Positions 3,959 to 50,849 of a DNA stretch of 64,000 bases are shown piece by piece. The position numbers and the translations under genes are program-made. This DNA is from Octopus vulgaris (lineage: Eukaryota), in contig OX597817.1 of the NCBI GenBank assembly GCA_951406725.2, positions 127,348,001 through 127,412,000 of the forward strand, written 5' to 3'. The notes beneath the pieces were generated by a model. It did not search any database. It was given only the letters and a program-made list of their open reading frames with translations, and was not told the origin of the DNA. The first letter of the stretch is position 1. Each line of letters begins with the position of its first letter.

Positions 3959-4687
3959 GCATACGAAATTATAGCAAGGGCTTGGCTAGTGCCTCACCAC
4001 GCAGTGAAAAATAGACGCCAAAAGACATTATTACCACCATAAATTCTCCGAGAAAAAATTATGTATAATAGGCTAGCAGAAGAAAGAAAATGAAGTAAAA
4101 CTTTGGTTAACCGTGTATGTGATGGTGTTTAGGGCTTAAAGTAATAAAATCTCTACCTACTGCTTTCATCAGCTTTTGTATACCAGGCTGATAACTTGGT
4201 GAAAATTATTAATGATTTTACCCTTTGTTATTATAATTTATATTTGAAAAAATATTTACCCCTTGGTCAAAACTGTATTAACTGCAGACTTGATCTTTAA
4301 CATACTCCACGTGGCTTAAGAGAAGGATATGAATTCTACTTCGCAGTATATCTCTGCGAGTCTCGACGAATATTGTCTAAGCAAAGACGTATCTCGATTA
4401 CATATCTGTGGTCACTCGTATATTTATGCCCCGGAATACCGACGCTGATGAAGGCAATACTCTCTTTTACTCTTTATACTCTTTTACTTGTTTCAGTCAT
4501 TTGACTGCGGCCATGCTGGAGCACCGCCTTTAATTGAGCAACTCGACCCCGGAACTTATTCTTTTTTTGTAAGCCCAGTACTTATTCTATCGGTCTCTTT
4601 TGCAGAACCGTTAAGTAACGGGGACATAAACACACCAGCATCGGTTGTCAAGCGATGATGGGGGGACAAACACGGACACACAAACAA

Positions 4688-4724
<37 letters not shown>

Positions 4725-4852
4725 TACGACAGGCTTCTTTCATTTTCCGTCTACCAAATCCACTCACAAGGTATTGGTCGGCCCGGGGCTATAGCAGAAG
4801 ACACTTGACCAAGATGCCACGCAGTGGGACTGAACCCGGAACCATGTGGTTG

Positions 4853-4867
4853 GTTAGCAAGCTACTT
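4853..4867. repeat. Target-site copy 1 (GTTAGCAAGCTACTT)
   Basis: Identical to 12747-12761; 10764-10779 differs by one extra A. Confidence 0.95.
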
Positions 4868-5095
4868 TCTTTCATATAATTTGCCATTTAGGCATTTACA
4901 AAGAGGGGACAAACAAGGACAGACAAATATAAAGGGTGAAGTAGCTTAACACAGTTACAATTTTCGAATGAAATTACGGATAAGATTATAAACAATGAAT
5001 TTTACGAAGGCAATGTTTAAAAATATTAATGATCATGTCGAAGGACGGACACACAGCCATCCGGGTAGAACCTTTACTTTCTGATCCGGTCACAC

Positions 5096-8000
5096 TTACC
5101 TGGTGCCAAACATACCCATCTTGTATGCCACAGGCTTCCATCTTTTCACAAACATATCTCGTGACAGACACCTCTTCTCCAGCCTGATTTTGCTACTGAG
5201 GTGGTAACTAAAAAAGTTAATCAACCCCTGGCCGGAGACAAAGTTGCCTGTCACTATACCTTTCGTACGCGTCTTCCATACTGTTTCTTTCAGTATGGCT
5301 ACTACACAGAAAAAACAAGCCTTTCTTTCCCTGTTAAGGAAAGGGGGCGGCACAATCTCGATGATAGACTCAGCCGATAGCTGTACTCTTCCCATCACTG
5401 ACAACAGTTGTTCAACAAAAGCTATCAGTCCCGATAACTCCGGACACTCCACGAATGCGTGCAAGACGGTCTCCCTATCCTGCTCACATCGCGGGCATGT
5501 CGGCGAGACGGCACTACCATGCCTTGACAGCTTGTCGCGAACAGGTAAAGCCGCACGGAAACACTGCCAGGCTAGGGATTTCTGGTAATTATCCAGATAC
5601 CCCGGCCCGAACGTCCTCCGGAACAGGTTGACCAACTGATTTTCATCGTAGCCCAGGGTCTCCCCCAAGGCGTCTTCGGACTTAATCTCCACTAACCCGC
5701 TATAGAAATCCGTGGTGGAACTCATGTTGCCGGCGTTGCCCACCCGAGATAGTAGCTGGAGCGCCTGACGGCACTCCAAATGCCATTCACTCAGTTTAGG
5801 TCTCCGCTTGATCCATGCACCGATGTCCGTTAGGGATGTTAACTGGGGATGGTAGAACCGGACGTGCGGCGACCACACCTGCTCTCCATCCAGGTAAAGC
5901 CAGAGGTGCCTCAACCTTAACGCGAGTTTTCGCATCCTCAGCCAAGGCATCCCTAGCCCACCCTTTAGCGGTTTCTGGCAGCAGACAGAGCGCTTTACAA
6001 GTAGCTTTCCTCCTTTCCACAAAAATCGGAAAAGGATTCTCTCCAACTTGTTCAGCCACAAATCGGGGCAAGGCACCACGGTCAGACGGTAGGTGATTAC
6101 TGATGCTATAAACATCTGCACCACCTCCGCCTTCCCTAGCAGGGATAACGCCCGCCCAGACCAGGTCTGGGTTAGAGCGGTCACCTTGTTGGCCACCTCA
6201 CTCCAATTTTTCTCAATCTGGAGGTCTGGCCCGAACCAGACTCCGAGCAGCTTAACAGGACCTTCCGCCCAACGCCCTACGACGTTATAGGACGGCATCG
6301 GCTTGCCCCTCCAGGTGCCGAGTTGCAAACCGACCGACTTGTCCTTGTTAACCTTTGCCCCTGCCACCGCCTCGTAGCTTTTGATGGCCTCTTCCACCAC
6401 TGGAAGCTGGCCTTCGTCTGCCACGATGATGGAGGTGTCATCCGCATACGCCGTAGCTCCTCTTCCACACCATAGATCATGCGGCGCGCCCCCTAGTGCC
6501 TCCAACTTCCGCAGCAAAGGCTCAAGAGCCAATACGTATAGGAGCGAGGACAGGGGACACCCTTGACGAACTGAACGCTCGATCGTGAACGGCTTCGAAA
6601 AGGAACCGTTCACCTTGACTACATACTCGATGTCGCTATACAAAGCAGCGATCCAACCTCGAAAGGTCGGGCCTAGGCCAGCCTCTCCGAGGACCGCCAC
6701 CAGGTACCGATGGTCAACCCTATCAAATGCTTGGACTGGTCTAAATGTACCAGTGCTTCCCCTGCGCCAGAAAGCTTCCCCACCCTCTCTAAGGAGTAGC
6801 GTATAAGGTGGAGATTGTCGTGGATCGTTCTGCCGGGGATAGCGCACGTTTGCGCTTCCCCGACAAGTTTGTCCACGACCCGCGCCAACCTTTTGCTAGC
6901 ACCTTGGCCAGAATCTTTAACTCTGTGTTTAACAGAGTTATGGGCCTGAAGTTCCCTATCTCGTCCCCCTTGTTCGGGTCCTTCCTGATCAACGTCACCG
7001 CCCCCCGGCTCGCAGACTTGGGAATTCTCCCATTCTGCTGCCAGTTGGCGTAGACGCTAGCCAGCAGGTGCCCGAACAAGTCTGGCATACTTCTATAAAA
7101 TTCATAGGGCAGACCATCGAGACCCGGCGAGTTCTCCCCGGGGCACTTGCCCAACACCTCGATTACTTCCTCGGCTGTGATTGGCCCTTCACAGCACTCA
7201 GCCTCTCGTGTCGAGAGGCGCGGGCCACCAGACAGGAAGTCCCTAAGGGCCTCACCATGATCCAGCGTCCCGCACCTCCCGAACAACTCGGCGAAGTGCT
7301 TGTGAAGTGCCTCACGCATCTCGTCCCGCTTCTTGATCGTGCATCCGTTTTCATCAACAAGAGACCCAATTGTGGCATCGTTTCCACACTGTGTTTCTAT
7401 CGTACGGGCCCATCCGGCAACATTAATTCCCTCACGGCCCAATGCTCGTACTTTAGCCCGGACTCTACATCCCTCATGTTTGGTTTTGAGGTGACGGTCT
7501 AATGCCGTTCTCGCCGCTAAAATGTGAGATGCAGAGCCCAACCTCAACGCCTCCTCTAAGTTCTTAACTAGTTGCCCTTCTATTCTATCCCTATCTAGTC
7601 TTAGTTGTTTACTAAATCTAATGGACTCGAATCGAATGGCTCTTTTGAGGGTGAACCACCACCGGTTATTAACCACGGCTCCGGTTAACGCCCTCTGCAC
7701 TAACACCTTAATCCGGCTACGGTATGCCTCGCGTGTCAAAATAGACTTGTTCAGCTTCCAGTAGCCGGTTCCTATCTTAAGTGTGCTATCTATGTCCAGT
7801 CTACACGTGACCATTCTATGGTCAGTATAGGGCACCTGGACGAGCTGTGGACAACTAAAACTAGACTTATCTCTAGTTCTTATCACTATCCTGTCTAGAT
7901 AAGACTTGAATCTTCCGTCGCCACTCATCCAGGTCCACTCTGGGACGTTCGGATGGTCAAGTCTGTAACGATCTGCTAGCTGAAACCGCTTAAGCAGATC

Positions 8001-8496
8001 CACGAGACGGGAGTTCACTTTCCTATAGATCGAGCCAACGCTATCGATGTGTACGTCAACGATAGCATTAAAGTCCCCTAATATCACTAAAGTCTTCGAC
8101 GTCACGAGAAACCCCTCTAGGCGCCGATAAAAATCAGTTTGGAAACCTCTAGCACAAGGTGCATAGAGTCCGATCAACCTGAAGGCCTTACTGCTATATA
8201 TCACATCAAGGACGACCAGCCCACCTTCTGGGTCTACATAGACTGTACTTGTCTGTAGGGCCAAGTCTTTACGGATCAGTAACACTACGCCCCCTCGCCC
8301 TCCGCGTCTGACCAGGAGACATGATTTTCTCGTAGCCATTCAGGAGAGGCGAGAAGGTTTGTAGGCTGTCCAGCTTGGTCTCTGTAGCAACCATCACATG
8401 TATATCATGTGATCTGAGGTCGTCGAGGAAACAAGCCTGCTTCAACTTCGAACTCAGACCACGCACATTTAAACAATCAAGGTTAAGCGAAGCCAT
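5096..8496 (-). CDS. Tx1-like ORF2 of element A: AP endonuclease + reverse transcriptase + C-terminal zinc finger, with three frameshifts (~8300, ~6890, ~6730)
   Basis: APE motifs LNVRGL, ATETKL, LYAP, ILGDFN, SYLDRI, YTDH; RT motifs SPGLDG, FRPITLLN, DQSKAFDRVDH, VRQGCPLS, YADD, LLGV; CPRC-X8-H-X4-C. The pieces join colinearly with the intact ORF2 of element C. Frameshifts could be decay or assembly indels. Confidence 0.92.
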
Positions 8497-8639
8497 TACA
8501 AAAAGCAAAAGTTCTACTTACATTTTGTTGGAGAGGTGGGGGCCGACCTCACCACACGTTTGTGGGCCCCTTCTTTCTCCTCTTTCTTCAGATAGTCCGG
8601 CAAGTTCGCGATATGCCGGATGGCGTTTGGGTGAAGACA

Positions 8640-8678
8640 GAAAGCGCCCGCCGACTTTTGCTTCTCTAAAACATTGTT
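8640..8678 (-). other. Conserved 39-nt post-ORF1 motif (predicted RNA stem-loop), copy in A
   Basis: 37/39 identical to 10890-10928 in element B. Confidence 0.8.
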
Positions 8679-8690
8679 CTTTTTAAAAAG

Positions 8691-8816
8691 ATTAACACAA
8701 AACGAGGTATTAAACCTCTTACAATTTTTCCAATTTTGGGCTTAGCAGTCCATTATTAATACAAAACGAGGTATTAATCCACTTACAATTTTTCAATTTT
8801 TGGACTTAAGTCCATT
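8691..8816. repeat. Two tandem ~63-bp direct repeats immediately after the ORF1 stop of element A
   Basis: ATTAAYACAAAACGAGGTATTAA...AGTCCATT at 8691-8754 and 8755-8816. Confidence 0.9.
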
Positions 8817-8817
8817 A

Positions 8818-10060
8818 CTAATAATACATATCGTCCTCGAAATAGCTTGTGCCCGCGCCCTCCACCATCAACCACGCCTCCCTCAGAACGTAGTCAAGTT
8901 CCGAGTTCGCGTCGCCCGGGACCAAGTTATAATCTTCATTGAGCTCCTTTAGCCCTAGCGTCACGTCGAACGCCACGGCCTCCACAGCTACCTGCGGAGG
9001 CCATTCGGGGTCCTGTGTGAAGGCTAAAGGTGCTCCCTTGTAGTGCTCTTCCATCACTTTTTCAATTTCTCCTCCCCTATAGAAGAGGACCAATACATTC
9101 AGTTCTTTCGTTGGCGGCACAGTTTCCGCCAACGGTATTCCTTCTCTTGTCGGTGGCACAACCCCAACCGACGTAGTTCCGCGACATTCCGGTGCCACAC
9201 TGACAGCCGGCAACGTCCCGTTTTTCTTCCTCTTTTTCTTTTTTTTTTCCCTTTTCAACTGAGGGAGGGTGCGTCTCCTCCGTGGCTGGAAGATTCGCCC
9301 TCCTCTCCTCATCCCTATTATCCTTTGGTGAGCACCCATTGTTGCTCACCTTCCTCTTTCGGCCTCTGCTTGAGGAGTCCTCTGCTTTCTCGGCCGTTAT
9401 CGTTCCCTCTTCTAGAGGGGTTTTACTTAACTGTTCCGGGATCCTATTTTGTTCCCGAGGACAGTTCTTCTTTATGTGGCCGGGCTCCAAGCACCGATGA
9501 CACTTAGGGGGGCGACCCTCAAGCATCACCGGGTACCTGCACCCGGCCATTTTCAAAAAATCTGGAAAAACCAGATTGGCTGATTGGGTCCACAGGGTCA
9601 AAATTGCTTTCGAGCCAACCCAAGCAGCCGCAGGAAGAACTTTTACATTGAGGAGCTTAGTTTCGCTGTCACCCAGACCCCGGCGGATGGTCTCCTCTAT
9701 CCACTCGGGTTCTATGTCGGGTGGCAGTCCGCAGATCCAAGCTTTCATCAATTTCTTTTTTTTGTACGTGGGCAGGAATAAGATTTCCTTACCCTCCAAG
9801 GGTTCGCTAGCAAATTTGCAAGCCTCTTCAGGGGTGTCAAACAGCAACCACACCGTTGCATATTTGACACCCCTGGAAATGAATTTAATTGTTGGCAAAT
9901 ACTCCTCCAACTTCTCAATTGCCGTCTTTTCGAATAGGGCGATGGTGTCAAGTGCCTTGGAGTAGGTTCTCAACACCACCGTCCTATCTTCACGGTCCTT
10001 CAACCACTTTTTGGGTGGTATGATTTCCCACTCCAAAACTTTGTTATTTTTCATTGCCAT
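8818..10060 (-). CDS. Tx1-like ORF1 (gag-like nucleic-acid-binding protein) of element A, one frameshift in the A-rich run near 9225-9250
   Basis: Knuckle CHRCLEPGHIKKNC (CX2CX4HX4C) and basic NLS-like runs. The C-terminal frame (GVVPP, LFYRGGEIE, WPPQVAVE) aligns with the continuous ORF1 of element B (GCVPP, LYHKGEEVE, WPPQVAAE). Confidence 0.85.
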
Positions 10061-10763
10061 GTTTTTTTAAAAATATATTCAAATTAAACTCAAAAGCAGG
10101 AAGAAAAAAGTTCAAAAGTCTAAATAAATTTGATAGATTTTTGAAAAAACAAAAAAGGAGAAAGCACAACAGAAGGGAAGAAATTAACGGAAAGTCGCAA
10201 TAAAGAAAAAACAAAAGGGGGGGGGGGTTAAATGAAGTTCAAAAGAAAGTTAATAAACAGAAAAAACACAGCAAAAATATTCTGGCCTTGCGGTACTCCC
10301 GGCCTGGGTTGAACCTGGAACGCCGCAACTGCAACACAACCTCCACAAAAATGGGTCCGAAAGGTAATCCAATAGTGGCTTATTTTTATACTTTTCTTGC
10401 GAAGTACTCTGACAAGGGAATAAATTCAACAAATCCAAACACAGCACTGGCTACCGCCAACGGTGATTTTAACAGTAACTGTATTGAATTCTGAGGATAC
10501 GCCCCTCCACTGTTTTTTTTTTTTTTTTTTTTCAATGAACACATAAACGGCAGCCGCCTAGCGCAGGCGAAATTGTCTCAGAGTTGGACACAACCTACTG
10601 AAATAATAATTGGCACGCAATAAATTATGCCCAACTCACAATAAACAAAATCACTTACCTCGACAACTTTCCGTTTTTTGGTTTTTTTTCTTTAGTTGGA
10701 CAGAGCTTGTTACTCACGTCCACTCTAGCTCAACAAGAAGCAACTGACTAACTGCGCATGTGC

Positions 10764-10779
10764 GTTAGCAAAGCTACTT
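10764..10779. repeat. Target-site copy 2 (GTTAGCAAAGCTACTT) separating elements A and B
   Basis: Target 15-mer with a single A insertion; followed by a 3'-end-like sequence matching that of A. Confidence 0.9.
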
Positions 10780-12746
10780 TATTTTATATAATTTGCCACT
10801 AGGGCAGCACACAGAGTAGTAGCTACGGGCTGGACAAGGACATTAATGGATGATGGTGGTGGTGGATGAAGATGGTGATGGGAGAAGTCGAAAGCGCCCG
10901 CCGACTTTCGCTTCTCTAAAACAATGTTTCAATAAATACATTTAATAAAATGTTCAAAAATTGTTCAACAATTCTTCTCGTCAGGTCCCCGAAGCTGTCT
11001 TGCCGCCTGCAGACAACTCTGCGACGACAAGTCGGGGCCTGCAAAGAGAAAGGTAAAGTCTTTCTTTTCAAAGGTCTCTGCGACCCTTGACAAAGTATCT
11101 TCTGTTACTTTTTCCGCAGCTACCTGCGGAGGCCATAACGGACTCCTTGAGCCGACCGTGTCCTTACGCTCTCGGTCACCCAAGCCATTCAAGAATCTTT
11201 CAACCTCCTCTCCCTTGTGGTAAAGGAGGAGAAGCATCTCCTCTTCACAGGGAGGGACCTCACACTCCTCCGTCGGTGGCACACTTCCCACTGGCGGAGC
11301 CTTGTCCGCGGGTGGCACACATCCCACCCGCGGCTCCGTCGGCGACACAGAAACGTCAGTCGTCCGACCTCTCCTTTTTCTCCTCCTTCTTTTGGGGGAG
11401 ACTGCTGACCCAGGGGACTCCGTCACCAGACACGGGGGATTGCTATCCCCCTTCGCCCCCTGAGCGTTCTTTGGCGGGCAACCATTGTTGCTCGCCTTTC
11501 TCTTTCTTTTCGTGGAGGCAACCTCCTCCACGACTTCCATCGTCTCCCCCTCCAATGAGGGGGCGGTGGGCGCCTTTTCCCCTCTCTGCTCCGGGGCACC
11601 ACTACGGCCCCTGGGACAATTCTTCCTGATATGTCCGGGCTTCAGGCACAGGTGACACTTGGGGGGGCGACCCTCGAGTATCACCGGGTACCTGTGCCCA
11701 GCCATTCTCAGGAAGTCCGGGAATTTCATTTCCCCCACGGCTACCGGTGTCCACAGGGTCAAAGTTGCCCTCGACCCCTGCCAGGCGACCGCAGGAGCCA
11801 CCTTCACACTTAGCAGTCTGGGTCCGCTATCCCCCAGGCCTCGCCGGATGGTCTTTTCGATCCATTCCGCCTCCGTGCCCGGGGGCAGCCCACACACCCA
11901 GGCTCTTTTCACTTTTCTGCCACAATACGAGGGGAGGAACAAAATTTCCTCTCCCTCCAGTGGCTCGCTAGCAAATCTGCTAGCTTCCTCGGGGGTACCA
12001 AATAGCAACCAGACCGTTGCAAATTTGCTCCCCCGAGAAATAAATTTTATAGTTGGCAGGTAGTCCCCCAACTCTTTCTCTATAGTATTCTTGTCGAAGA
12101 GGGCAATGGCTCCACGCGACCTAGAATAGGTTCGTAGGACACCGTCCTCTTCTCAAGACTTTCAATCCACTGCTTTGGTGGGACGACCTCCCATTCCAAA
12201 GCGGTGGTTTCTTTTGTTGCCATGTTTTTTTTGTTTTTTTATTAAATAAATGTATTTAGAATAAAACTAAAAAACGAGAAGAAAAGGAAATCCGAAGAAT
12301 GTCACAATGAAAAACGGAGAGAGTCAAATAAAGTTGAAAAGAAAGTCAAATAAAGTTAAAAAGAAAGTCAAAAACACAGCAAAATCCTTTTGGCCATTTG
12401 GTACTCCCGGCCTAAATCGAACCAGGATCGCACAGCTCCCACAAAAATTGGTGTAAAATTGGTAGTTCTTCACAGCACCATACAATTTTCACAATTCGAA
12501 GACGGATACGCCCCCCAAAATTTTCTCAGCGAGAAAAATATATCTGCCACATGTCGGCAGAATCAGAATTCTGAATCCAGTAGGACTTTCTGCATGTAAA
12601 AAATAATTCTCAACAAAAACTCCCACTGGACCCAGAAAACAGAATCTTACCTTACATGGGGCTTCCAAAGTTTCAATTCAAGACGGCTTCAAAAGCACAT
12701 CTTCACTGCTTCAGTAGCAAACACAACATTGACTCGCACATGCGCA
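10780..12746 (-). mobile_element. ORF1-only (non-autonomous, HAL1-like architecture) Tx1-related retroelement, element B
   Basis: Has its own 5' UTR, an ORF1 paralogue and a ~185-nt 3' UTR ending like A (TGCC..GGCAAATTATAT-A-rich). No EN/RT sequence; bounded by target copies 2 and 3. Confidence 0.85.
10965..12223 (-). CDS. ORF1 of element B (gag-like, CCHC knuckle), one frameshift near 12140
   Basis: ATG at 12223 gives MATKETTALEWEVVPPKQW (cf. A: MAMKNNKVLEWEIIPPKKW), then LRTYS..YLPTIKFISRG..EGRPPKCHLCLKPGHIRKNC; stop at 10965. Confidence 0.85.
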
Positions 12747-12761
12747 GTTAGCAAGCTACTT
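12747..12761. repeat. Target-site copy 3 (GTTAGCAAGCTACTT)
   Basis: Identical to 4853-4867; the SINE head resumes immediately after. Confidence 0.95.
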
Positions 12762-12887
12762 ACCACACAGCCACTCCTGCGCCTATAGGTAATGTTTTTA
12801 TTACTTTTAGCCCGAAACATGATCTTGTACACGGTTAACCAAAGTTTTAAATCACTTTCTTTCTTCTGCTAGCCTATTATGTAGTGT

Positions 12888-13273
12888 GTGGAGTTGCAAT
12901 GGCCCAGTGGTTAGGGCAGCGGACTCGCGGTCATAGGATCGCGGTTTCGATTCCCAGACCGGGCGTTGTGAGTGTTTATTGAGCGAAAACACCTAAAGCT
13001 CCACGAGGCTCCGGCGGGAGATGGTGGTGATCCCTGCTGTACTCTTTCACCACAACTTTCTCTCACTCTTACTTCCTGTTTCTGTTGTACCTGTATTTCA
13101 AAGGGCCGGCCTTGTCACTCTCTGTGTCACGCTGAATATCCCCGAGAACTACGTTAAGGGTACACGTGGCTGTGGAGTGCTCAGCCACTTACACGTTAAT
13201 TTCACGAGCAGGCTGTTCCGTTGATTCGGATCAACCGGAACTCTCATCGTCGTAACCGACGGAGTGCTTCCCC
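12888..13273 (+). mobile_element. tRNA(Arg)-like-headed SINE with 9-bp TSD
   Basis: A box TGGCCCAGTGG, GACTCGCGGTC anticodon-like arm, B box GTTTCGATTCC; TSD ATGTAGTGT at 12879-12887 and 13274-13282. Confidence 0.88.
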
Positions 13274-13539
13274 ATGTAGTGTCTTTTTCTTGGAGAATTT
13301 ATGGTGTTAATAATGTCTGTTGGCGTCTATTTTTCAGTGGTGAGGCACTAGCTAAGCCCTTGTTATAATTATGTATATGATTATAAGATATTTATAAAAT
13401 TTACCTATGAGGTTTTATTTCTGCGCTGACCACTTGGTAAAGATCATTAATGATTTTTACCTTTTTTTTTATTATTATAATTAATATTTGAAAACATATA
13501 TATGCATACATATATATTCATATACATGAATATATTCTT

Positions 13540-13741
13540 TTTTCTTTTATTTGTTTCAGTCATTTGACTGCTGCCATGCTGGAGCCCCGCCTTTAGTCGA
13601 ACAAATCGATCCCAGGTCTTATTATTTCTAAGCCTTGTACTTATTTTATCGGTCTATTTTGCCGAAACTCTAAGTTACTGGGAGGTAAACACACTAACAT
13701 CGGTCGTCAAGCGATGGCGGGGGACGAACAAAGACTCACCA

Positions 13742-13826
<85 letters not shown>

Positions 13827-13970
13827 CGACAGGCTTCTTTCAGTTTCCGTTTACCAAATCCACTCACAAGGTTTGGTCGACTCGAGGCTATAATAGAAGA
13901 CACTTTCCGAAGGTGGCACGCATTGGGACTGAACCCAGAACCATGTGGTTTAATAGTAAGCTTCTTACAA
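13540..13970 (-). mobile_element. Uninterrupted, head-decayed copy of the SINE family targeted by elements A/B
   Basis: Colinear with 4480-4867; the equivalent target position reads AATAGTAAGCTTCTT. Confidence 0.88.
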
Positions 13971-48522: not shown

Positions 48523-50849
48523 ATGTTTCTTTATTAGCCACACAGGGCTGCACACAGATAGAACAAATTACAAGGTAGAGCTTTTCTTTTGAAGGTTTAA
48601 AAAAAAAAAAAAAAAAAAAAAAGGAAGGGGGAGTTTCGATCAAAAGGGATCGTAAAAGGAGAGAAAGAGGACAAAAAAGGGGGGGTTAAGAAAAAGGGGG
48701 AGAGAAAAAAAAAAAAAAAAAAAAAATTGATCAATAGGGATCGTTATCACAGAAATGTCAATATGAAGTGTAAAGGGGAGGACAGGTGAGGTTTACCCGT
48801 GGAAAGAAAAGCCTACGGAAAAGACCACGGTAACCTCGGTCAATGAAGTCACATTTTATATTTCTTTTTTTTTTTTTTTGCAAATAAGCAACTCTCTGTT
48901 TTCGATTTCTGGGTTCATAGGACTATGCTCAAGGTGGCTTCGTCATTCATACGTGCCATTCTTGCTACATTCACCCATCTTTTTTTAAAACATTCGCTAG
49001 ACAAAACTTGCCTCTCTACTCTCACTTTCCTTTTCAAGTGGTACTTGAAGAAGTTGATGAGAGATTGACCAGAGAGGAAAGTGTTTGTCTCCAATCCTTT
49101 CAGACGCGTCCACCAGATACATTCCTTCGCCATAGCCACAAGGATGATGAAAATAGCTCTTCCTTCCCGTTTGAAGGAAGGAGGCGTGACAATATTGACG
49201 ATAGACTCAGCTGATAAACCGACTCGTCCTACACGTGACAGCAGTTGTTCGACATAAGCCCACAGGTCGGAAATTGTTGGACACTGAACGAGTGCGTGCA
49301 GAACGGTTTCGTCGCTCTGACCGCATCTCGGGCAGGTCGGCCCCGTGTTTCTCGAGCCGTGTCTGTAGAGCTTATCCCGAACGGGTAGCGCTTCTCGGTA
49401 GCACTGCCAGGCCAGGGATCTCTGGAAGTTGTCCATGGGCCCTGGCCCGAAAGTCGTCCTGAACAGGCGGGTCAGGTACTCCTCGTCGACGTCCAGGTTC
49501 GCCCCGAGCTCGTCGTCGTACCTCCCCTCCACTAAACCCCTATAGAATGCTTTGGTTGTGTTGAAGTCACTTAAGGTCGACCCAGGACGGCAGAGTTGCT
49601 TGAGAGCAACGCGACACTCGCGGTGCCATTCGCCCTTCCTCGGCCTCTTTTTGATCCACGACTGCAGTTCGGTCATGGAGACGAGCTGCGGGAAAGCGTG
49701 CCTCACAAACGGCGACCACACCTGTTCACCGTCGTCTACATAGAGCCAGAGATGCCGCAGTCTCAGCGCGTGTCTGCGCATCATCAACCACGGCATGCCC
49801 AGCCCTCCTTTTAACGGGTGTTGACAGCAAATGGATCGCCTGACCATCGGGACGCATCCTTTCCACAAGAAGCGAAAGAGGATGCGTTGTAGTTTGGTGA
49901 TGGTAGGGTCGGGACAAGGTACGACGGTCAGGCGGTAGTAGATGACGGACGCGATGTACGTGTTCGCCACCTCCGCTCGACCTTTTAGGGACAGTTTCCT
50001 CTCGGCCCATTGCCGGGCGAGAGTGACCACCCTACTCGTTATCTCGTTCCAGTTCTTCTCCACTTGGAGGTCCGGACCAAACCAGACCCCGAGCAACTCA
50101 ACCGGGCCGTCGGTCCAGCGTCCCACGACGGAGGCGCTGGTGGACGGCATGGGCTTGCTTCTCCAGGTGCCTAGTCGCAAGCCCACTGACTTTTCCCGGT
50201 TGATTTTCGCTCCTGTCACCGCTTCGTAGTTTTTCAGTGTCTCGCCGACCAGCTCGATGTGCTCGTGGCTAGACACTATGACGGTGACGTCGTCCGCGTA
50301 TGCAGACACGCTCGTCCCGTATCCCAATTCTCGCGGGATGCCCCTTAGAGTCGCCAGCTTCCGCAGTAGTGGCTCAAGAGTCAATACGTATAGAAGCGCC
50401 GAGAGGGGGCATCCCTGACGGACCGAACGTGCAATGTCGAAAGGTCTCGATAGATGTCCATTTACGCGAATTACCGAACGGATGCCTCTGTACAAGGCAG
50501 CTATCCATCCGCGGAAAACGGGACCGAAACCAGCCGCTCTCAGGACTGCCCCCAAGTATCGATGGTCTACCCTATCAAAGGCTTTCGATTGATCCAAGTT
50601 GATCAGGGCCCCACCCATGCCAGGTTCGTTAACTACCCTGTCTATGATGTAGCGCATCAGATGGAGGTTGTCATGGATGGTCCGGCCTGGCACGGCGCAT
50701 GTTTGCGCCTTGTCGACCAGTTTCTCGATGACAAGCGCCAACCTCTTGGCTAGCACCTTGGCCAAAATTTTCAAGTCTGCATTAAGCAGAGTGATGGGCC
50801 TAAAGTTATCTATTACATTTCCCTTGTTTAGATCTTTCTTCAGCAGTGA
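48523..50849 (-). mobile_element. 5'-truncated Tx1-clade retrotransposon, element C, inserted in (GATA)n
   Basis: Uninterrupted RT-CCHC frame, ~390-nt 3' UTR ending AGCC-CTGTGT-GGCT-AATAAAG; GATA/GACA repeats on both flanks. Confidence 0.92.
48915..50849 (-). CDS. ORF2 of element C (RT + C-terminal zinc finger; endonuclease lost by 5' truncation)
   Basis: LLKKDLNKG..FRPITLLN..DQSKAFDRVDH..RQGCPLS..YADD..LLGVWFG..CPRC-X8-H-X4-C with no stop or frameshift; clearly homologous to but distinct from ORF2 of A. Confidence 0.9.
   Translation of the reverse strand, partial: SLLKKDLNKGNVIDNFRPITLLNADLKILAKVLAKRLALVIEKLVDKAQTCAVPGRTIHDNLHLMRYIIDRVVNEPGMGGALINLDQSKAFDRVDHRYLGAVLRAAGFGPVFRGWIAALYRGIRSVIRVNGHLSRPFDIARSVRQGCPLSALLYVLTLEPLLRKLATLRGIPRELGYGTSVSAYADDVTVIVSSHEHIELVGETLKNYEAVTGAKINREKSVGLRLGTWRSKPMPSTSASVVGRWTDGPVELLGVWFGPDLQVEKNWNEITSRVVTLARQWAERKLSLKGRAEVANTYIASVIYYRLTVVPCPDPTITKLQRILFRFLWKGCVPMVRRSICCQHPLKGGLGMPWLMMRRHALRLRHLWLYVDDGEQVWSPFVRHAFPQLVSMTELQSWIKKRPRKGEWHRECRVALKQLCRPGSTLSDFNTTKAFYRGLVEGRYDDELGANLDVDEEYLTRLFRTTFGPGPMDNFQRSLAWQCYREALPVRDKLYRHGSRNTGPTCPRCGQSDETVLHALVQCPTISDLWAYVEQLLSRVGRVGLSAESIVNIVTPPSFKREGRAIFIILVAMAKECIWWTRLKGLETNTFLSGQSLINFFKYHLKRKVRVERQVLSSECFKKRWVNVARMARMNDEATLSIVL

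Follow-up and report, generated by a model that had tools for sequence, protein, structure and literature searches.

In a 64-kb window of the Octopus vulgaris genome (GCA_951406725.2, contig OX597817.1, positions 127,348,001–127,412,000 of the forward strand, numbered here from its first letter), retroelement sequence interrupts a tRNA-like SINE and a short target sequence recurs at the joints, which raises the question of whether a SINE can be the fixed target of a LINE. Within the region studied (4853–12761), the SINE and all of its inserts lie on the minus strand. The 5′ part of the SINE head, with its A box (12763–12773), lies at 12762–12783. The remainder of the interrupted SINE, comprising the B box (4826–4836), a microsatellite and the tail, lies at 4490–4852 and matches an uninterrupted copy (13543–13966) at 75.5%. 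Since the head occupies 12762–12783 and the SINE body continues below 4852, the insertion site immediately follows the A box. A position search recovered the 15-mer at 4853–4867 and 12747–12761 and, at 10764–10779, a 16-base form that is one base longer; there was no further copy of the 15-mer anywhere in the window. This agrees with a sequence-only reading of the locus, which had placed three target copies here, between the A and B boxes and co-oriented with the SINE. The same reading expected a continuous head once the inserts are removed; indeed, 19 distinct uninterrupted heads occurred in the fetched loci, and joints at which the whole insert is skipped were present in four public short-read runs.

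The same site is used throughout the genome. In a genome-wide pattern search of the flanks at element 3′ ends, a check that the sequence-only reading had proposed, 112 of 115 exact ends of the autonomous family described below adjoined this site and were followed by AAGTAG; one of the pattern sets for these ends included no target bases. Of the remaining three exact ends, the one examined (L250) was off target. All 120 element ends that were read abutted the site, a set that includes the four ends in the window and, for some arrays, more than one member. Filled junctions numbered 1,029 genome-wide (control, 1) and exact empty sites 81,920, both being counts of exact patterns, which overlook older copies as well as older empty sites. 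With some 1.2% of the exact sites filled, the SINE cannot be depleted by this system. Insertions share one orientation and one fixed base, with precise 3′ joints that lack poly(A), supporting a sequence-specific non-LTR system with the SINE head for its target. Nine 5′-truncated copies, down to about 50 bases, lay at the same base with 10–16 matching bases on both sides (judged by eye), indicating that they inserted on their own; such target-site duplications and 5′-truncated copies are also characteristic of the L1 group. Our preferred reading, to which we give a probability of about 80%, is that a young LINE of the L1 group, equipped with an APE endonuclease and accompanied by many ORF1-only passengers that share its tail, inserts at one base after the SINE A box, likely by means of its endonuclease.

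The elements in the window are less simple than first described. The sequence-only reading saw two different retroelements, A and B, in tandem; the tandem inserts are present, but A consists of two fused elements and B is a non-autonomous, HAL1-like element encoding only ORF1, giving the order head, B, N1/autonomous chimera, SINE body. The 5′ part of A (8633–10763) is 98.5% identical to the best copies of the ORF1-only family N1, whose full unit is normally 2.25 kb, and lacks N1's own 3′ tail. Its ORF1 (10060 to 8818) encodes a zinc knuckle (zf-CCHC, E 0.0012, below the Pfam cut-off) and has its frame broken near 9250. The 3′ part (4868–8633), with 98.8% identity to its best other copies, comprises the end of ORF1, ORF2 and the 3′ UTR of a 5.45-kb autonomous family; its ORF2 (8496 to 5096) has APE endonuclease, RT and zf-RVT domains and is broken near 8304, 6890 and 6730. 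The two parts join over an imperfect microhomology a few bases long (8628–8633). This join has a single genome-wide match when up to one mismatch is allowed, and one short-read contig, in agreement, tracks the 5′ part of ORF2 to 8633 with 52 letters left over. Element A as one intact family is ruled out by the unit comparison and by the join being found at one locus; it is a single-locus chimera, as read from one assembly. Most simply, the window holds a three-unit array in which the sequence between N1 ORF1 and autonomous ORF2 was later lost. Element B (10780–12746) is 1.97 kb long, lacks poly(A) and is 98.7% identical to the best other copies; its ORF1 begins at 12223 and ends at about 10965, and the frame is broken near 12140. 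Logan contigs from seven runs cover parts of both A and B, and none of them spanned any junction with 31 letters on each flank (for the 3′ junction, best 27 and 23). Element B was mostly uncovered in one short-read run, to which we attach no evidential weight.

The autonomous family carries the Pfam domains Exo_endo_phos, RVT_1 and zf-RVT and has no LTRs, and other copies have an open ORF1 of 466–467 aa and ORF2 frames of 1140–1150 codons. The closest solved relative of ORF2 is human L1 ORF2p (E 3e-67), with R2 at 1e-19. By its predicted layout of ORF1 and an ORF2 with an N-terminal APE domain, an RT and a C-terminal zinc finger, the family is classed as an L1-group non-LTR retrotransposon. 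It probably belongs to the Tx1 clade, as it combines an APE-type element with sequence-specific insertion into a repeated target; no named Tx1 reference was among the homologue-search, protein-cluster and atlas matches. Sequence-specific APE-type insertion is, in the part of PMC4640811 consulted, also a trait of the R1 clade, which we keep apart because the ORF2 here is L1-like. In a midpoint-rooted FastTree tree, the family fell in an octopod clade that includes an Argonauta protein.

The passengers are units of 1.5–2.3 kb without ORF2, some copies of which have an open ORF1 of 408–415 aa; among B-type units, 4 of 26 had an open ORF1 of 414–415 aa. With the window's chimera excepted, ORF2 was absent from N1 and B units in the fetched loci, and no ORF2-bearing element there had an N1- or B-type ORF1. 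Identity of the N1- and B-type ORF1 to the autonomous ORF1 is ∼29%, and N1 and B differ from each other in ORF1 with a dN of 0.25 and a dS of 1.8. Both tails in the window contain a predicted short stem-loop and a motif antisense to the target, with putative functions: in the autonomous tail (4882–4947) at 4882–4894 and, as a 9-base motif, 4939–4947, and in the tail of B (10794–10826) at 10794–10806 and 10818–10826. Of 31 tail types, 25 have the stem-loop. Because they share tail and site, B and N1 may be mobilised in trans by the ORF2p of a partner; the ORF1-only families would likely borrow this protein through the shared tail while keeping their ORF1 under selection.

We then separated target from element at the junctions. 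The tail-side copy (4853–4867) is true SINE sequence, joined straight to the element end without poly(A), and it differs among loci in the manner of SINE variants. The head-side junction (12747–12761) consists of about 9–10 or more bases of duplicated target plus the leader of element B, which jointly re-form the target; the point of division is unresolvable at this locus, where the SINE copy carries the same variant as the leader. Elsewhere, the family leader was kept in 17 of 19 solo copies with a differing target variant, both exceptions being truncated. The upstream 15-mer thus ends in ∼6 bases of element leader, which rebuild the site, and the sequence-only view of the 15-mer as target holds for about 9 bases but not for these. 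A clean 15-bp target duplication is ruled out for full-length copies by this element-borne leader, and the targeting is refined rather than overturned. The middle junction (10764–10779) has 9 target bases followed by the N1 leader with zero overlap. The extra base noted there is real but is no mutation, since this one-base-longer form recurs in 10 of 52 solo copies (hand count).

Filled sites gather further copies far beyond chance. Arrays reached nine copies; on C1, 4 of 72 loci held 2, 2, 4 and 8 copies, against an expected 0.6% of loci with at least two and 1e-15 sites with eight. The two insertions in the window, which had been taken as independent, are therefore probably not so. Under the preferred reading, later copies likely use the rebuilt junction, so that arrays would grow at the head side. 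Consistent with this, an array on C10 has an older B (1.67% to its nearest relative) tail-side and younger copies (0.2–0.8%) head-side, and one junction form prevails throughout long arrays (7/7 on C5 and 8/8 on C1). Both observations count against a tentative alternative that accepts the targeting but has each array made in one event, the RT jumping from a finished RNA to the 3′ end of the next, guided by the match between leader and read-through. Template jumping by the R2 RT, as cited in the part of PMC2718515 consulted, would provide a precedent. Stacking is also evident at the ends of B, 26 of 30 of which are followed by another element. One-event arrays fit the rarity of B ends that meet SINE (4 of 30) and the six N1 copies directly behind B, all as young as B (0.32–0.46%), which also suits co-insertion. 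The order at L195 counts against strict head-side growth: a B copy that differs by 2.8% from its nearest relative is on the head side of an N1 whose own figure is 0.45%. Neighbouring junction forms were alike in 33 of 38 cases in the first arrays (19.1 expected; dominated by three long arrays) and in 7 of 15 in new short arrays (hand count). Such runs fail as proof of head-side growth, being strong in the first set and unrepeated in the second, and their absence from short arrays is what single events would give. We regard these single events as possible, with the odds clearly against them.

Targeting itself likely arises from the LINE endonuclease recognising and nicking the SINE-head sequence. 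In the mechanism that we propose, ORF2p would nick the bottom strand after the A box. The RNA would run slightly into downstream target, the element end and target together spelling AATAAA, and this 3′ read-through part would pair with the freed primer to fix the start of copying. The top strand would be cut about 9–16 bases further on, and leader cDNA would join or anneal at this second cut, restoring a full target head-side. The filled SINE, with its A and B boxes so far apart, would presumably lose Pol III transcription. Specificity might instead come mostly from the RNA, its antisense motif pairing with the displaced top strand or with read-through target while the endonuclease is loose. 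The motif is present in 24 of 31 tail types compared with 15% of shuffles (the tails are related, and two of the 24 are inverted-locus artefacts), is paired with read-through target in the folds predicted for the two window tails, and spans target bases 1–9, the end point of the shortest duplications. However, 7 of 31 tail types lack it and are still at the site, it is absent from the (TC)n lineage (0 of 7) and has at most 5–7 chance-sized matches in other sisters, and the part of PMC4494074 consulted ascribes target choice in this group mainly to the endonuclease; we consider the idea doubtful. A bolder reading, in our judgement equally doubtful, is of an APE-type LINE whose RNA helps to choose and rebuild the target through its 5′ target bases, its 3′ read-through and an internal antisense motif, which would hold the displaced strand and position the second cut. 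Every new insertion would then leave a more favourable target than the SINE that it had destroyed, and a guild of ORF1-only parasites would pile into self-feeding arrays within another parasite.

Local tandem duplication by unequal recombination, or faulty assembly, could in principle build arrays, and two neighbouring or near-neighbouring pairs do differ by a single base. Arrays nevertheless mix up to four families, the nearest relative of a member is often in another array, and for many members a copy on a different chromosome is a closer match than the adjacent unit, which makes this origin quite improbable.

The SINE has a tRNA-like head, A and B boxes and high copy number, as tRNA-derived SINEs do. 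OK and OR1 are named octopus SINE families. A further named family is OR2 (PMC4758252). Rfam and ARAGORN did not call the head as a tRNA; its intact form aligned best to this genome's tRNA-Lys(TTT) (score 38; mean 6.4 and maximum 34 in 2000 shuffles). This likeness would allow a real tRNA or other host gene to be the evolved target and the SINE a look-alike. The sequence-only reading had proposed checking genuine tRNA genes for the site, and in a partial sample of about seven isotypes, 0 of 35 distinct tRNA genes had the 9-base core within one mismatch. Each array or solo copy traced to an on-target end reached SINE sequence, and we hold a host-gene target to be very unlikely. That the SINE halves belong to a composite element spread as a unit without targeting is hardly credible: part of the upstream 15-mer is indeed element-borne, but downstream halves vary from locus to locus and truncated copies and many unrelated 5′ ends lie at the same base.

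Transposon-targeting Tx1 families, stacking and HAL1 elements are each already known; the comparisons that follow draw on portions of the cited sources. Tx1L inserts in Tx1D (Xenopus), Tx1-Mar in Mariner-N4_AMi with SINEU passengers, Tx1-8_Crp and Tx1-4_AMi in LTR elements and Tx1-9_AMi in Harbinger (PMC4494074). As here, an APE-type LINE targets another repeat and its passengers share the target, and SINEU-3 shows tandem insertions around a duplicated target (PMC4494074). In contrast, the octopus target is a SINE head beside the A box, one base is used in one orientation (Tx1-Mar has two regions, and SINEU specificity spans 13 to 90%; PMC4494074), the passengers code for ORF1 whereas SINEU is snRNA-headed, and the lineage is young, with 98–99% identity and open ORF2 copies. 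Keno resembles it in targeting the inside of a small-RNA gene, but Kibi, Koshi and Keno use a microsatellite or host gene rather than a mobile tRNA-like repeat (PMC4494074). HAL1 (half-L1) elements, non-autonomous L1-group derivatives, likewise encode only ORF1 (PMC5753468). They are described there for mammals with no mention of a fixed target, whereas here many families with an ORF1 distant from the autonomous one share one site and one tail. R1 in 28S rDNA also stacks, via duplicated target at the 5′ end of the resident copy (PMC2718515), which gives head-side growth a precedent, and R1Bm needs downstream target, which aids accurate priming (PMC7265360, as cited there); R1 and R2 differ in belonging to other clades and in targeting a host gene (PMC2718515, PMC3774820). 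Unlike R2 5′ leaders (PMC3774820), the octopus leader copies downstream rather than upstream target bases, and the 5′ ends of two octopus loci gave no Rfam match to an HDV-like ribozyme at E up to 1, although a diverged one could escape. No published case of a SINE head as LINE target turned up in searches of the literature outside Repbase.

The SINE promoter region thus joins the known targets of sequence-specific LINEs, with a LINE here landing in a SINE. With roughly a thousand natural junctions and a polymorphic target, target- and element-derived bases can be separated, a direct read-out of second-strand joining. Arrays of 15–20 kb in octopus genomes, and statistics of the 'LINE near SINE' kind, should be interpreted with targeting considered. 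Sister LINEs, 63–67% identical in ORF2, have other targets: of 17 loci, none was at the SINE site and seven were in (TC)n, the latter recalling Kibi, as described in the part of PMC4494074 consulted. Because young sister lineages with different targets (the SINE head, (TC)n and others) and naturally open frames share one genome, the gain or change of APE endonuclease specificity becomes testable by domain swaps. Endonuclease domains differ between lineages with different targets, and closer relatives (L288–L290, L234, L244 and L260) use the SINE site.

The targeting system is real, genome-wide and precise to the single base. Each of the 120 element ends inspected in the four initial searches adjoined the site, a 15-mer directly after the A box of a tRNA-like SINE head (30 of the 40 best matches per search, including the window's own ends and members of shared arrays). 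In line with the site-specific insertion put forward in the sequence-only reading, an exact pattern for the end of the autonomous family, containing no target, matched the genome 115 times, and 112 of these matches then run into the target; the sole off-target autonomous end examined had no SINE adjoining. A family-wide junction pattern gave 1,029 matches and a control pattern one, and exact empty sites number 81,920. Because the SINE halves downstream of the inserts vary from locus to locus and nine 5′-truncated copies all lie at the same base, the SINE is the target and not cargo. Genuine tRNA genes had been raised as possible carriers of the site, but its core occurred in none of 35 distinct genes (about seven isotypes). 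As a control, 17 of 17 loci of sister LINEs (63–67% ORF2 identity) lay away from the SINE site, seven of them in (TC)n, and three closer relatives use it. The SINE variant matching the element leader, the element-borne bases that re-form the site, was counted by hand at 33 of 52 filled solo (single-copy) sites and at 38 of 100 empty sites taken from the top of the list; this subfamily is possibly a mildly preferred target.

At the window locus, the minus strand reads SINE head (12783–12762, A box 12773–12763), junction, element B, junction, element A, junction and SINE body (B box 4836–4826). The three target copies claimed earlier are present on this strand, with 15-mers on the head side (12747–12761) and tail side (4853–4867) and a middle copy one base longer (10764–10779), and the 15-mer has no further occurrence in the 64-kb window. 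Intact SINE heads aligned best with the genome's own tRNA-Lys(TTT) (score 38; the best of 2000 shuffles reached 34). Copies of other repeats flank the locus on opposite strands (12786–13340 and 4002–4160), among them, near 12885, what appears to be another tRNA-like SINE head, in plus orientation. Within the SINE body, 23 bases (4662–4684) resemble a portion of the autonomous 3′ UTR (4905–4927; repeat family D12) at 91% similarity.

Element A codes for pieces of an APE endonuclease, RT and zf-RVT, in a frame broken near 8304, 6890 and 6730. Comparison of 38 loci fetched via its 3′ end and 22 via its 5′ end assigned these ends to separate families: the 3′ end comes from an autonomous family, 5.45 kb long, that has a 5′ UTR of its own and a 467-aa ORF1, and the 5′ end from N1, a 2.25-kb ORF1-only family. 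Their join (8628–8633) occurs once genome-wide. Of the two retroelements proposed to stand in tandem, A is a chimera, and the window locus contributes this one-off product and no active copy. B represents a second ORF1-only family. Another 39 junction loci on chromosome C1, selected for diversity of tails except for one that is off-target, yielded many more such families and, at the SINE site, three ORF2-bearing copies of older date. ORF1 of N1 and B differ with dN 0.25 and dS 1.8 (230 codons); five other passengers with at least 60 aligned codons gave dN 0.16–0.42 and dS 1.06–1.5, three more pairs being saturated and one too short, hence unused. The closest named homologue is an Argonauta protein (64%), which together with the known SINEs of octopus points to an octopod genome. 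At L163, L164, L185, L302 and L303 the passengers are mosaics that combine one family's 5′ end with another's tail; recombination between families is common. N1, B and a further family, N3, carry at their 5′ ends (10748–10763, 12731–12746 and L185) a GCGCATG-type palindromic motif, which we take to resemble an NRF1 site and which is a candidate internal promoter. About 20 bases inside autonomous 5′ ends (L122 and others) and L035 lies a decayed second copy of the target junction, which suggests a single past addition of an extra 5′ piece.

Since the SINE is polymorphic, target bases can be separated from element bases. In 19 of 52 solo copies the tail-side variant differs from the leader type, and 17 of these kept the family leader head-side, the remaining two being truncated; truncated copies had 10–16 matching bases. 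These observations show that only ∼9–10 bases, sometimes more, are duplicated target. The 15-mer had been read as target throughout; judged from these variants, the upstream copy is part duplicated target and, for the rest, element leader re-forming the site. The extra base of the window's middle junction is a non-overlapping join of target and leader, found in 10 of 52 solos, and older families have different leader variants. No ribozyme family matched in the two loci scanned. For R2, target-derived bases at the RNA 5′ end are postulated to guide second-strand priming (PMC3774820).

Element 3′ ends lack poly(A), and element end and target jointly read AATAAA. Most of the 31 tail types (25) contain a short stem-loop, which in one of them is changed on both sides. 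Of the same 31, 24 carry a motif antisense to the target, which turns up in 15% of shuffles; the tails are related, and two of the 24 rows are artefacts of an inverted locus. The motif holds in the SINE-site lineage and not in sister lineages. From the case of R1Bm (cited in PMC7265360) we infer that priming may proceed by RNA read-through into the target.

Given that 1.2% of exact sites are filled, two copies are expected at 0.6% of the filled ones; on C1, stacking was seen at 4 of 72 loci, with 2, 2, 4 and 8 copies. Sequence was followed through whole arrays of 7, 8 and 9 units, and another element came next at 26 of 30 B ends (by hand count, at 18 of 22 loci). Growth by head-side addition, as reported for R1 (PMC2718515), would fit two observations: neighbouring junctions in long arrays share the same form in 33 of 38 cases (19.1 expected), and the age order of units in a C10 array agrees. 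However, new short arrays lack the junction-form effect (7 of 15 neighbours alike), one old B sits head-side of a young N1, and every one of the six N1 copies lying behind a B is young, which count against head-side growth. Template jumping may instead have built the arrays. Plain local duplication is disfavoured, since array members often have their nearest relative in a different array.

In 18 public runs under five organism codes, at least half of the sampled words round the 3′ junction were present. Contigs from seven runs showed the empty allele and portions of elements, and none of them bridged a junction with 31 letters on each side.

Members of the Tx1 clade are known to insert into DNA transposons and LTR elements and to have stacked passengers (PMC4494074); the LINE at the SINE site is a putative member of this clade. 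HAL1 is known from mammals (PMC5753468). A 2026 octopus repeat annotation reports 13 recently active L1-Tx1 families, and the word ‘target’ is absent from it (PMC13282606). Full-text searches of a largely open-access literature, without Repbase Reports or Dfam, turned up no paper on a LINE targeting a SINE head.

Sister lineages use other sites. A 5′-truncated relative from the same LINE group (48630–50830, minus strand; 67% nucleotide match to the ORF2 part of A) has TATC-type microsatellite on both flanks, a further target within the LINE radiation. A young sister lineage whose ORF2 frames are open over 1138 codons (L271–L275, L277 and L278) was inserted in (TC)n in seven of seven cases, like Kibi in fish. 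The flanks of a third (L276 and L279–L287) are varied, and L279, L282, L285 and L287 lie in 5.3-kb head-to-tail arrays. At L255 (C1 near 111,116,900), a pair of element 3′ ends, both very short, stand back to back in opposite orientations at one SINE site, as if priming had occurred from both strands; the target region contains a 6-bp inverted repeat. L206 (C12 near 25,268,600) holds six tRNA-Cys-type genes or pseudogenes inside 3 kb.
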